64,000 nucleotides of DNA. Origin: Escherichia coli (GTDB taxonomy: Bacteria > Pseudomonadota > Gammaproteobacteria > Enterobacterales > Enterobacteriaceae). Position 1 is the stretch's first letter, and each line of letters begins with the position of its first letter. The stretch lies in the NCBI RefSeq assembly GCF_048403405.1, contig NZ_CP183129.1; one strand, written 5' to 3'. Below are positions 56,636-58,439 of the stretch, piece after piece. The position numbers were made by a program, and so were the translations under genes. Under the pieces are notes generated by a model. The model was not told the origin of the DNA. It did not search any database and saw nothing but the letters and a program-made list of their open reading frames with translations.

Positions 56636-56800
56636 GGAGATGACGCAACTCATTGACATCCTCCACGCCCTGAAGGACGTGGATCCCTGCTACGTTCAGG
56701 CTGTCGCCTGAATCATTTCGGTGGGTTCCTGCTTCAACGGGCGGCCTGACTGCACCATCCCTCCACAGGCAAGAACGGCGTGCCCCGCCGCTAAAATGTT
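56636..56800 (-). ncRNA. predicted omega RNA (right-end element RNA) of TnpB; extent approximate
   Basis: Inference from family architecture: omega RNA overlaps the tnpB 3' end, runs through the right end (hairpin 56663-56682) and ends in a flank-derived guide, predicted here as 5'-GAGUUGCGUCAUCUCC. Not directly visible as a gene. Confidence 0.3.
56663..56682. repeat. right-end subterminal imperfect palindrome of the IS
   Basis: CCACGCCC-tgaa-GGACGTGG, one mismatch in the stem; near-identical to the left-end copy. Confidence 0.75.
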
Positions 56801-57904
56801 ACGAGCGCCATTTACATCGGCGTTCGCTGTATATCCACATACCTGGCATCTGAATTTACTTTGTGACAGGCGATTTTCTTTCGCTGTATGACCACAGCAC
56901 GCGCAACGCTGGCTTGTGTACGCTGGCGGAACAGCAAGCACCTGACCGCCACGCCAGAGCTGCTTGTACTCAAGCTGGCGGCGCATTTCATACCAGCCCT
57001 GATCCAGTATCGAACGGTTTAAACCTGATTTTGCCCGGACATTGCGCCCCGGCTGGCTGACCGTACCCGCTGCTGACTTTGACATGTTACTGACCTTCAA
57101 ATCCTCAATGACTATCATTGCGTGGTTTTTGCTGACGGTCGTTGTGACTTTGTGAAGGTAGTCCCTGCGGATATTTGCGATACAGGAATGCAGTCGCTGT
57201 ATTTTGCGTTTCTGCTTCTGCCAGTTGTTGCTGAATTTGACCTTGCGGCTTAACTGTCGCTGAAGTCTCGCCAGCGTCTTCTGGTTTTTCTGAAAACTGT
57301 TTACAGGCTCAAAGACTGTGCCATCTGACAGCGTGGCGAGTTTAGCCACGCCAGCATCCAGCCCGACCATTGATGCTGAAGGGTGAACCGGAGTTGATAC
57401 TTCACTTTCTGTCTGAATACTGATGTACCACTTACCGCAGGACTGGCTGACAGTGACATTTTTCACAACACCCGTGACCTGACGGCTATTCCGGTAGCGC
57501 ATCCAGCCAAGTTTCGGCAGAAAAATACGGCTGTTTTCCTGATCGAGCTTAACGCCCTGCGGGTAGCGGAATGCATCATTCTGTCCCCGCTTTTTGAATC
57601 GGGGAAAAGCAGCCCGCTTCTGGAAGAAGTTTTTGTAAGCCCGCTCAAGGTCTTTCAGTGACTGTTGCAATGGCTGTGACGGGGCATCTTTAAGCCATTG
57701 CGTTTCAGTGGCATTTTTCCACTCAACCAGCCAGGAAGCCATTTTCCCGTAAGGGATGTATTTATTACCGGCCTCATGATTCTCATTCTGAAGCGCCAGA
57801 GCACGATTGAAAACGAAACGACATGCGCCTGCGAAGCGCCTCATTTCACGCTCCTGTTGACCACCGGGTCTTAACTGGAATTTAAATGCCTGTAGTCGTT
57901 TCAC
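56696..57904 (-). CDS. tnpB: TnpB (OrfB), RuvC-like RNA-guided nuclease of IS200/IS605 family
   Basis: 402-aa ORF; Ruv[12 protein letters not shown], Ruv[14 protein letters not shown], zinc finger CACCGH...CQVCGY, Ruv[14 protein letters not shown]; no frameshift or internal stop. Confidence 0.9.
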
Positions 57905-57911
57905 AGGCCAA

Positions 57912-58439
57912 ATGATACTTTGGTCTGTGAAAAAAGAAACCGATATCCGGCGTGGAAGGCATTGTGTTTTCCTGATGCATGTTCACCTGGTCTTTGTCAC
58001 CAAATACCGACGTCAGATTTTTGACCATGACGCGACAGAAAAACTACGCACTTACTTTTCAAAGGTATGTGCTGATTTTGAAGCTGAACTGGTTGAAATG
58101 GATGGCGAACCAGATCACGTCAATTTGTTAATTAACTATCCTCCCAAACTGGCGATATCCAGTCTGGTAAACAGCCTCAAAGGCGTATCGGGTAGGTTAC
58201 TGCGACGAGATCGACCAGATATTGCCGTCAGGTATTACTACAAAGGCGTTTTGTGGAGTCCTGGCTATTTTGCCAGTAGCTGCGGAGGTGCGCCAATATC
58301 CGTCATCCGCCAATACATTGAACAACAGCAAACACCTGGTCAGGTGGAAAACCGCGCCTTATATCCCCGCCCTGAAGGACGGGGTTTTACGGCGCACCGG
58401 ATAAAGAAACAGTCAAAATCACTCAGCAAAACAGGCTGA
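57912..58439 (+). CDS. tnpA: IS200-type Y1 (HuH) transposase TnpA; HuH motif reads H-V-N
   Basis: 175-aa table ORF (true start may be internal ATG at 57975); TKYRRQIF, DHVNLLI and GGAPISVIRQYIEQQ align to IS200/IS608 TnpA from memory; last ~13 codons lie beyond the inferred IS end. Confidence 0.8.
   Translation: MILWSVKKETDIRRGRHCVFLMHVHLVFVTKYRRQIFDHDATEKLRTYFSKVCADFEAELVEMDGEPDHVNLLINYPPKLAISSLVNSLKGVSGRLLRRDRPDIAVRYYYKGVLWSPGYFASSCGGAPISVIRQYIEQQQTPGQVENRALYPRPEGRGFTAHRIKKQSKSLSKTG
58365..58384. repeat. left-end subterminal imperfect palindrome of the IS
   Basis: CCCCGCCC-tgaa-GGACGGGG; differs from the right-end copy at two stem positions. Confidence 0.75.

Follow-up and report, generated by a model that had tools for sequence, protein, structure and literature searches.

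The two near-identical hairpins that lie just inside the ends of an insertion sequence in the yajI gene of this Escherichia coli are very probably the left (IPL) and right (IPR) subterminal imperfect palindromes of IS609, an element of the single-strand “peel and paste” transposition type. The stretch of DNA that was analysed (the window) has a length of 64,000 nucleotides, and all coordinates refer to it. A first, sequence-only reading had proposed that the hairpins are recognised by a Y1 transposase, and comparative evidence (their position, the covariation of their stems and the guides next to them) supports such a putative role. In this sense they are ordinary transposase-recognition hairpins of a long-catalogued element, i.e. 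they are real but not new.

Identity and exact ends of the IS609 copy

The element inside yajI is a complete copy of IS609 with 1748 bp and belongs to the IS200/IS605 family with divergently oriented tnpA and tnpB genes. It occupies positions 56653..58400 on the minus strand with its left end (LE) at 58400 and its right end (RE) at 56653; its top strand is the window minus strand. IS609 copies with 98–100% identity to it were detected in 4858 out of 5426 genomes of E. coli, and the element occupies roughly 11,000 places in this collection. Identity with the copy of strain O157:H7 amounts to 98.7% over 1747 nt, and the tnpA gene of that copy is named by PGAP “IS200/IS605-like element IS609 family transposase”. 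The name IS609 is that of ISfinder, and the element was placed in the subgroup “IS605c” (PMC9956272). Among 5424 genomes that gave a match to yajI, 5084 have the gene in uninterrupted form, so that this locus is a less common IS609 site. Transposition of IS609 was never seen in mutation-accumulation lines of strain K-12 (PMC5009759).

The intact yajI allele (...CAACTCA|ATAAAG...) is compatible only with an insert from 56653 to 58400, and excision of exactly this block gives back intact yajI without any target-site duplication. Likewise the yoaG copy, when its TTGAC...CACCGG block is removed, equals the empty site with 100% identity over 150 nt, and six independent E. coli insertion sites agree with the same ends. 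The sequence-only reading had placed the ends at 56652 and 58399, one base too far to the left, which leaves a G at the joint where every intact yajI allele has an A. These ends were rejected; only a shift by one base gives the empty yoaG site with full (100%) identity and agrees with the published cleavage sites of IS609, namely TTAT at LE and TCAA at RE (PMC9956272 Table S1). As the true ends are 56653 and 58400, the hairpins lie 10 nt inside the window-left end and 16 nt inside the window-right end instead of the 11 and 15 nt reported before. The repeats at the two ends are direct and not inverted, and this copy has no terminal inverted repeats. This means that yajI is split by a clean, duplication-free insertion, and the boundaries of IS609 are defined to the base by the hairpins, the target TTAT and the terminal TCAA, which is mainly of value for annotation.

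Structure and conservation of the two hairpins

On the plus strand the palindromes read CCACGCCC-TGAA-GGACGTGG at 56663–56682 and CCCCGCCC-TGAA-GGACGGGG at 58365–58384, exactly where they had been located. On the minus strand IPR (56663..56682) reads CCACGTCC-TTCA-GGGCGTGG with an 8-bp stem, one T·G wobble and a TTCA loop, and IPL (58365..58384) reads CCCCGTCC-TTCA-GGGCGGGG, also with an 8-bp stem and one T·G wobble. They are direct copies in the same orientation with 18 of 20 positions identical (within a 21-nt repeat family), and the one stem mismatch originally noticed in each of them is a single non-Watson–Crick position, C·A on the plus and T·G on the minus strand. The two differing positions (3 and 18) pair with each other, forming A–T at one end and C–G at the other. 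Folding of the terminal 60 nt, proposed as a check, returned the claimed hairpins at both ends, with –14.6 kcal/mol (z = –4.1) for the top strand of RE and –14.7 kcal/mol (z = –2.4) for that of LE, both being more stable than shuffled sequence. A degenerate hairpin motif has two matches in the complete 64 kb, both on one strand and both being these hairpins, whereas only 0.01 matches are expected from shuffled sequence and none of 100 shuffles reaches two.

The comparison with other copies, also proposed at the outset, revealed that the distance between hairpin and end is constant at all six E. coli insertion sites. In the window copy each stem has only the single T·G, whereas in five other copies from E. 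coli one end or both show additional mismatches. In several long-resident copies the extra stem mismatches are uncompensated, which means that not every copy has kept its hairpins intact. A chance occurrence of two GC-rich palindromes without function could appeal to these degraded stems, to the shortness of the sequences and to the mismatch in each of them. It is refuted by the motif shuffles, by the distance from the ends that is kept in all copies and by compensatory changes across genera; also the two differences between the window hairpins fall on pairing partners, and the probability left for chance is negligible.

The covariation was analysed in relatives of IS609, whose right ends were anchored by blastn; an initial regular expression was too strict and almost nothing was found with it. 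Automatic best-hairpin picks were rejected at five loci as they represented unrelated hairpins. With the loop and the search range restricted in the choice of hairpins, 92.6% of the stem cells of 37 distinct ends are paired vs 85.8% in shuffles, and 14 cells with double changes are found vs 2.7 in shuffles. Changes on both sides occur in four of the eight stem pairs, none of 500 shuffles was as high as the observed value, and slid controls gave a pairing of 42–57%. All the right ends that were recovered, which come from about 30 relatives in other genera, have the same invariant tail AGGATGTCAA.

Rho-independent terminators, or unrelated REP-like palindromes that happen to flank the element, also have GC-rich stems with 4-nt loops, and E. 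coli is rich in REP palindromes. The hairpins, however, are internal to the element, move with it to six loci and to other genera, are missing from the empty sites and occur only twice in 64 kb. Neither of them was listed as an intrinsic terminator in the terminator scan, and the RE hairpin is followed in the sense of tnpB by AGGATG and not by a T tract. We therefore regard this explanation as very unlikely and retain the assignment to IPL and IPR.

Active strand, cleavage sites and putative guides

The window minus strand had been suggested as active top strand from the asymmetry of the spacings, and it is borne out on stronger grounds, namely the conserved TTAT, the terminal TCAA, the covarying complementarity between guides and cleavage sites and the direction of tnpB. 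A conserved TTAT 5′ of the left end is found only on the minus strand, where the element ends with TCAA, and tnpB reads towards this TCAA end. On the plus strand ATAA directly follows the element at all six E. coli sites and pre-exists in the empty sites; the window-left flank, which would have to contain the target if the plus strand was active, varies (…GATA, …TTTG, …TGTG, …CAGC, …TGTC, …CTCA) without a conserved target, and the stem irregularity would then be a C·A mismatch. Thus, the plus strand was rejected. Among the stem cells 34 G·T pairs are found on the top vs 10 on the bottom strand. This bias and the covariation of guide and target are indirect sequence indications that IS609 TnpA may bind and cleave single-stranded DNA in a strand-specific manner.

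At RE the element terminates with the 4 nt of its cleavage site CR, TCAA (56653..56656, minus strand), and the cut falls 10 nt 3′ of the foot of the hairpin. The AG directly 3′ of the IPR foot (56661..56662, minus) corresponds in position to A-10/G-9 of IS608, which form triplets, and may have the same role. The putative guide GR (56683..56686, minus) is GGAT, while it is GAAT in most relatives and in IS608. According to the IS608 rule G1 faces C-3 as G:C, G2 faces C-4 as G·T, G3 is A and G4 faces C-1 as T:A; at T-4 the GR of this copy has a G·T instead of an A:T pair.

At LE the target and cleavage tetranucleotide CL is TTAT (58401..58404, minus), which is part of the yajI flank and thus outside of the IS. 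The putative guide GL (58385..58388, minus) is AAAA and would pair with this TTAT according to the IS608 rule. A linker (58389..58400, minus) extends from the cleavage point to GL and makes up, together with GL, the 16 nt between cut and foot. The AT directly 3′ of the IPL foot (58363..58364, minus) corresponds in position to A+42/T+43 of IS608, which form triplets, and its role may again be the same. Inside the linker GCGCC (58391–58395, minus; GGCGC on the plus strand) is one arm of a predicted outer helix of 5 bp, whose second arm is found at 58354..58358 (minus) and which, in both the MFE and the centroid fold, encloses the hairpin of LE together with its guide and the AT. In six relatives GCGCC/GGCGC is replaced by GTGCC/GGCAC.

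The guide rule was taken from work on IS608 (PMC3201880 and PMC5934647). With the cleavage position in non-E. coli loci read at a fixed distance instead of being set by empty sites, and with a distance of 15 nt chosen post hoc for one group of relatives, 25 out of 31 left ends conform to the rule. Four combinations, in which a change of the guide goes along with one of the target, were found: AAAA/TTAT, AAAG/TTAC, CAAG/TGAC and CAAA/TGAT. The rule is broken in the other six left ends, including a multi-copy subfamily of Buttiauxella with ATAT at the guide position. The first base 3′ of the foot and guide position 3 are an invariant A in the 37 ends, and the dinucleotide AG 3′ of the foot is present in all 16 right-end rows. 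This comparative set represents a confirmation from natural variation of the IS608 pairing rule in another branch of the family, the mechanism itself being that of the textbook.

Proteins, proposed mechanism and a possible role of the right end in RNA

TnpA of the window copy is a Y1/HUH transposase (NF033573, 143 bits vs a cutoff of 55), PF01797 was found on all its homologues, and the TnpA structures of IS608 and ISDra2 are homologous to it (E about 1e-19 to 1e-17). The tnpA open reading frame (57912..58439, plus strand) is altered in two respects. The normal gene ends at 58343, and here the stop codon is lost (TAG to CAG at 58341) and the frame runs through the LE hairpin into yajI. In codon 71 (58122) AAT (N) replaces CAT (H), i.e. 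the second histidine of the HUH motif, which is invariant in the alignment of TnpA homologues and aligns with the HUH histidine of chain 2ec2_A. The latter chain was the top PDB alignment shown and is labelled “hypothetical transposase”. Because of H71N and the lost stop codon the window copy probably cannot supply active TnpA and would need this protein in trans. The gene tnpB (insQ; 56696..57904, minus) is an intact open reading frame of 402 amino acids (NF040570, 388 bits vs a cutoff of 100) that reads towards RE and has its stop 43 nt inside it. A search of the literature found no paper on the hairpins of IS609 or on binding or cleavage by IS609 TnpA.

The structural and biochemical model of the family is IS608 from Helicobacter pylori; its TnpA is only remotely related to that of IS609 (E = 7e-19 vs the PDB chain). 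Both elements have subterminal imperfect palindromes at both ends on one strand and insert without duplication; both share RE cleavage at TCAA 10 nt 3′ of the hairpin foot (PMC3201880), a guide tetranucleotide on the 5′ side of either foot whose third base is A, AG 3′ of the IPR and AT 3′ of the IPL foot, and a T-rich 4-nt target read by GL, the comparison of the RE tail covering A-10, G-9 and TCAA. In contrast with IS608, which combines TTAC with AAAG, IS609 combines TTAT with AAAA. The distance from LE cut to foot is 16 nt in IS609 and 19 nt in IS608, GR is GGAT in the window copy but GAAT in IS608, and the irregular position in the stem is a T·G wobble in IS609, whereas an extrahelical T was described for IS608. 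Moreover, tnpA and tnpB are divergent in IS609 and co-directional in IS608.

Following the biochemistry of IS608 and ISDra2, from which the binding by TnpA, the formation of base triplets, the flipping of the A and the role of ωRNA are taken over, transposition of IS609 would proceed as follows. When the minus strand becomes single-stranded (e.g. as lagging-strand template), each hairpin with its 8-bp stem and TTCA loop would be bound by one site of a dimeric TnpA. The cleavage sites would not be read by TnpA itself but by the 4 nt 5′ of each foot acting as guides: GL (AAAA) would pair with the TTAT of the flank, which is 16 nt upstream of IPL, and GR (GGAT) with the TCAA at the terminus, which is 10 nt downstream of IPR. 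In both guides the base at position 3, always an A, would be inserted into the protein, and the AT and AG just 3′ of the feet would form base triplets. Cuts after TTAT and TCAA would release a single-stranded circle with resealing of the donor, and the circle would be inserted 3′ of another TTAT without duplication.

It is conceivable, though we consider it rather unlikely, that ends of the IS609 type deviate mechanistically from the IS608 paradigm. Under this assumption the conserved T·G wobble on the top strand, with no extrahelical T, may allow TnpA to tell the active strand from its complement, and the outer helix of 5 bp, which covaries and surrounds the hairpin of LE, may bring the TTAT cleavage site to the guide. 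Target choice may also not always depend on pairing with GL, for which the multi-copy Buttiauxella subfamily with ATAT at the guide position gives a hint.

The RE hairpin might additionally act in RNA. When transcribed it would form the final stem of the RNA that guides TnpB (ωRNA), with the DNA just beyond RE as guide. An ωRNA-like region (56637..56812, minus strand) has a conserved structured part with several stems at about 56653–56812, which shares sequence with the 3′ end of tnpB and has the RE hairpin as its last element; the flank next to RE (about 56637–56652, minus) is the candidate guide, its extent being putative as well. The RNAalifold consensus of 15 relatives contains 36 pairs, 17 of them with compensatory changes, and its last stem is the RE hairpin. 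Searches in Rfam gave HgcC (RF00062; 23.8 bits vs a gathering threshold of 50), sot0042 (RF02656; 17 vs 88 bits) and RAGATH-18 (RF03064; 28.1 vs 44.9 bits), and the region is not a member of any of these families, the alignments being good only over hairpin and tail or over one stem. An “RE-like tetraloop” was described for sotRNAs, one of which was reported for a tnpB of E. coli K-12 (PMC4615843). This tetraloop of sotRNAs and HgcC resembles the RE hairpin by its GC-rich 8-bp stem, its UUCA loop and its location at the 3′ end of a transcript overlapping tnpB, and the local alignment with the HgcC and sot0042 consensus is nearly identical across the hairpin and the AGGAxGUCA tail. Over the complete models, the scores of the region fall far short of the gathering thresholds.

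These similarities could be extended to an interpretation in which both hairpins function exclusively in RNA, RE as terminal stem of ωRNA and LE as stabiliser or terminator at the 3′ end of tnpA mRNA, with no binding site for TnpA in DNA. The conserved and covarying structure at the 3′ end of tnpB, the weak match to HgcC and sot0042 with their transcribed 8-bp/UUCA element, the wobble that reads T·G in the direction in which tnpB is transcribed and the TTTT after the LE hairpin on the plus strand are in line with it. But the LE hairpin, in the orientation that keeps the wobble, is antisense to tnpA, and no ωRNA is located there, yet it has the sequence, loop and orientation of the RE hairpin. 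It was not called terminator-like, is followed by 4 T only, and this T run becomes CTTT in elements with AAAG. Furthermore, a function in RNA alone does not predict that the 4 nt adjacent to the hairpin covary with the cleavage or target tetranucleotide, and homologous TnpA proteins have been crystallised on just such DNA hairpins. Such a reading is thus improbable, and the hairpins are better understood as IPL and IPR of IS609, with a possible second role of IPR in ωRNA. They identify the strand and the flank that a TnpB guide RNA from the window copy would read; the predicted TnpB target in the intact yajI allele is TTAT followed by TGAGTTGCGTCATCTC.

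Identity and exact ends of the element in yajI

The element inside yajI is a copy of the insertion sequence IS609, since its 1.75 kb show 98–100% identity to sequence in 4858 of 5426 complete E. coli genomes and the PGAP product name of the intact transposase is "IS200/IS605-like element IS609 family transposase". It contains a tnpB ORF of 402 aa (56696-57904, minus strand; NCBIfam TnpB NF040570, 388 bits) and, divergent from it, a tnpA ORF starting at 57912 on the plus strand (NCBIfam IS200/IS605 transposase NF033573, 143 bits), whose product is homologous to the crystallised TnpA proteins of IS608 and ISDra2. 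A 14-nt inverted repeat, TTTCACAGGCCAAA / TTTGGTCTGTGAAA (57899-57932, 93% complementary with a 6-nt gap), lies over both start codons and might function as an operator or in translational control.

In the intact yajI allele the sequence is ...CAACTCA/ATAAAG..., and the sole insert that fits it is 56653-58400 (TTGACATCC...GCGCACCGG, 1748 bp). The ends 56652 and 58399 of the sequence-only reading would leave the joint ...CAACTC/GATAAAG..., which is found in no genome. At six independent E. coli insertion sites (yajI, ydcO, yedK, a TetR-family gene, yfeD and yoaG) the element begins with TTGACATCC after unrelated flanks and closes with CACCGG followed by ATAA (6/6). When this block is deleted from the copy in yoaG, the empty yoaG site is restored (100% over 150 nt), and for yedK the corresponding joint shows a 99.3% match. 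In a published survey the cleavage sites of IS609 are given as TTAT (left) and TCAA (right) (PMC9956272 Table S1). With these ends the terminal hairpins lie 10 nt (window left) and 16 nt (window right) inside the element and not 11 and 15 nt as previously proposed. Comparison with the intact yajI allele reveals no target duplication. The insertion splits yajI into flanks at 56463-56652 and from 58401 onwards. As the contiguous yajI target site is missing in about 340 of 5424 E. coli genomes with a match, only a minority lineage carries this insertion or another disruption at that place.

Terminal hairpins and the active strand

Written on the plus strand, the palindromes are CCACGCCC-TGAA-GGACGTGG at the right end (RE, window left, 56663-56682) and CCCCGCCC-TGAA-GGACGGGG at the left end (LE, window right, 58365-58384), exactly where the sequence-only reading had placed them. 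They are direct copies of each other with 18/20 identity, and their differences fall on pairing partners (A-T at one end, C-G at the other). A degenerate 20-nt pattern spanning both, with up to two mismatches permitted, finds these two sites only in 64 kb (0.01 matches expected from shuffles). Each stem has the one irregular position already reported, which is C·A on the plus and T·G on the minus strand. The proposed DNA folding of the terminal 60 nt on both strands yielded hairpins at both ends, closed throughout on the minus strand (RE -14.6 kcal/mol, z = -4.1; LE -14.7 kcal/mol, z = -2.4) and with a broken stem on the plus strand (-13.7 and -13.6 kcal/mol, respectively). Except for both spacings the observation is real, and comparative evidence supports its interpretation as hairpins recognised by the transposase; they are a standard, already catalogued part of this well-known insertion sequence.

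Crystal structures and biochemistry of IS608 established that TnpA binds top-strand hairpins and that the cleavage tetranucleotides are read by the four nucleotides 5' of the hairpin feet, G1 pairing with C-3, G2 with C-4 and G4 with C-1, while G3 is an A inserted into the protein; triplets involve the two bases 3' of the foot (RE AG, LE AT), and cuts occur 10 nt 3' of the RE foot and 19 nt 5' of the LE foot (PMC3201880, PMC5934647). On the minus strand, with slashes for cuts and hairpins in brackets, the LE of IS609 reads TTAT/CCGGTGCGCCGT-AAAA-(CCCCGTCC TTCA GGGCGGGG)-AT... and the RE ...GGAT-(CCACGTCC TTCA GGGCGTGG)-AGGATGTCAA/. The LE guide AAAA pairs with TTAT at all three positions of the IS608 rule, and the RE guide GGAT with TCAA as G:C, G·T and T:A. 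Guide position 3 is likewise A, AT (LE) and AG (RE) follow the feet, and the RE cut is also 10 nt from the foot, whereas the LE cut-to-foot distance is 16 nt instead of 19. The IS609 ends fit the IS608 scheme point by point.

With the plus strand as active strand the guide scheme fails and the flank by the end is not conserved. Moreover, tnpB runs towards the window-left end, as expected of a right end. On these grounds the minus strand is the active one, and the strand call is supported by far more than the spacing asymmetry from which it was originally made.

In the window tnpB is intact. In tnpA the HUH motif has lost its invariant second histidine to N (codon AAT; PDHVNLL), position 58122 being A here and C in 5/5 other copies compared. 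In addition the stop codon TAG is changed to CAG (58341-58343), so that the ORF continues for 32 codons across the LE hairpin into yajI (57912-58439). Judged from these changes, this TnpA is probably catalytically dead and the copy probably non-autonomous.

Apparent decay and covariation of the ends in other copies

Other IS609 copies without hairpins, or with hairpins at other distances, would have spoken against the earlier reading; the hairpins are present at the same distances. All five E. coli copies at other sites (ydcO, yedK, TetR-family gene, yfeD, yoaG) show at least one extra uncompensated hairpin mismatch each, and in the yajI copy the stems are better paired than in any of these five. 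Stem variants of long-resident E. coli copies are GGACGAGG, CCAAGCCC and TGACGAGG at the RE and GGATGGGG, CCCTGCCC and GGAGGGGG at the LE. The tnpA gene is annotated as pseudogene in 4/5 other E. coli copies examined (ydcO, yedK, yfeD and yajI-H1), and in three of the five copies outside yajI. In mutation-accumulation lines of K-12, no movement of IS609 was seen (PMC5009759). The uncompensated stem changes look like slow decay of immobile copies.

A TnpA-alignment scan with one genome per species gave 45 related loci (57–94% TnpA identity) from Escherichia, Klebsiella, Serratia, Pantoea, Erwinia, Morganella, Yersinia, Buttiauxella, Thermomonas, Comamonas, Malikia, Caballeronia, Burkholderia and others. 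Their RE tail AGGATGTCAA is invariant and their RE guide is GAAT, as in IS608, or GGAT. Stems vary, for example CCATGTCC/GGACATGG, CCTCGCCC/GGGCGAGG, CCCCTGCC/GGCAGGGG and CCTCGGCC/GGCCGGGG. Among 37 distinct ends 92.6% of stem cells are paired, versus 85.8% after shuffling and 42–57% with slid partners, and double changes occur in four of eight stem pairs (14 cells versus 2.7 expected). These values were reached by 0/500 shuffles, which are counts and not probabilities because the sequences are mutually related. Irregularities are mostly top-strand T·G (34 G·T cells versus 10 on the bottom-strand reading). A is invariant at guide position 3 and at the first base 3' of the foot (37/37 ends). 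Guide and target covary (AAAA/TTAT, AAAG/TTAC, CAAG/TGAC, CAAA/TGAT), and the IS608 rule is kept in 25/31 left ends, with the non-E. coli cut position taken at fixed distance without empty sites and one group read at 15 nt instead of 16, picked post hoc.

A pyrimidine precedes the target tetranucleotide (window 58405, top strand) in 30/30 left-end flanks with the tetranucleotide at the expected distance, so the effective target looks like YTTAT/YTTAC; this preference could come from TnpA or from a TnpB adjacent motif. The LE hairpin lies, together with the guide AAAA and the AT bases, inside an outer 5-bp helix GCGCC/GGCGC (58354-58358 with 58391-58395), which becomes GTGCC/GGCAC, changed on both sides, in six relatives. 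We know of no equivalent in IS608. Buttiauxella warmboldiae harbours a multi-copy subfamily (L016, L021, L022, L023) with intact tnpA and copies 1–3.5% apart. Its LE has turned into a long, perfect palindrome, GTGCCTTATAT(hairpin)ATATAAGGCAC, which places ATAT at the guide position, with no IS608-rule pairing to the flanking TTAC; L019 of the same genome keeps the canonical AAAG. Relatives on tiny contigs assigned to Streptomyces mutabilis (L020, 2057 nt) and Herbiconiux daphne (L049, 672 nt) are of enterobacterial type (TnpA identity 77–84%) and look like contamination, not true actinobacterial copies.

A probable RNA role of the right-end hairpin

Relaxed, sub-threshold Rfam matches to HgcC, sot0042 and RAGATH-18 cover the tnpB 3' end and the RE (56640-56823, minus strand), the alignment being near-identical across hairpin and tail. 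All three families are counted among the tnpB-3' "sense overlapping transcripts", for which a 2015 paper described an 8-bp/UUCA "RE-like tetraloop" (PMC4615843). Aligning the last 160 nt of 15 relatives reveals a conserved multi-stem fold with the RE hairpin as final stem and compensatory changes in 17/36 consensus pairs. Following established TnpB biology (PMC8612924), this minus-strand region is very likely the predicted ωRNA scaffold of TnpB. From this we infer a putative guide in the minus-strand flank just past 56653 (TGAGTTGCGTCATCTC...) and TTAT as putative adjacent motif in the intact yajI allele.
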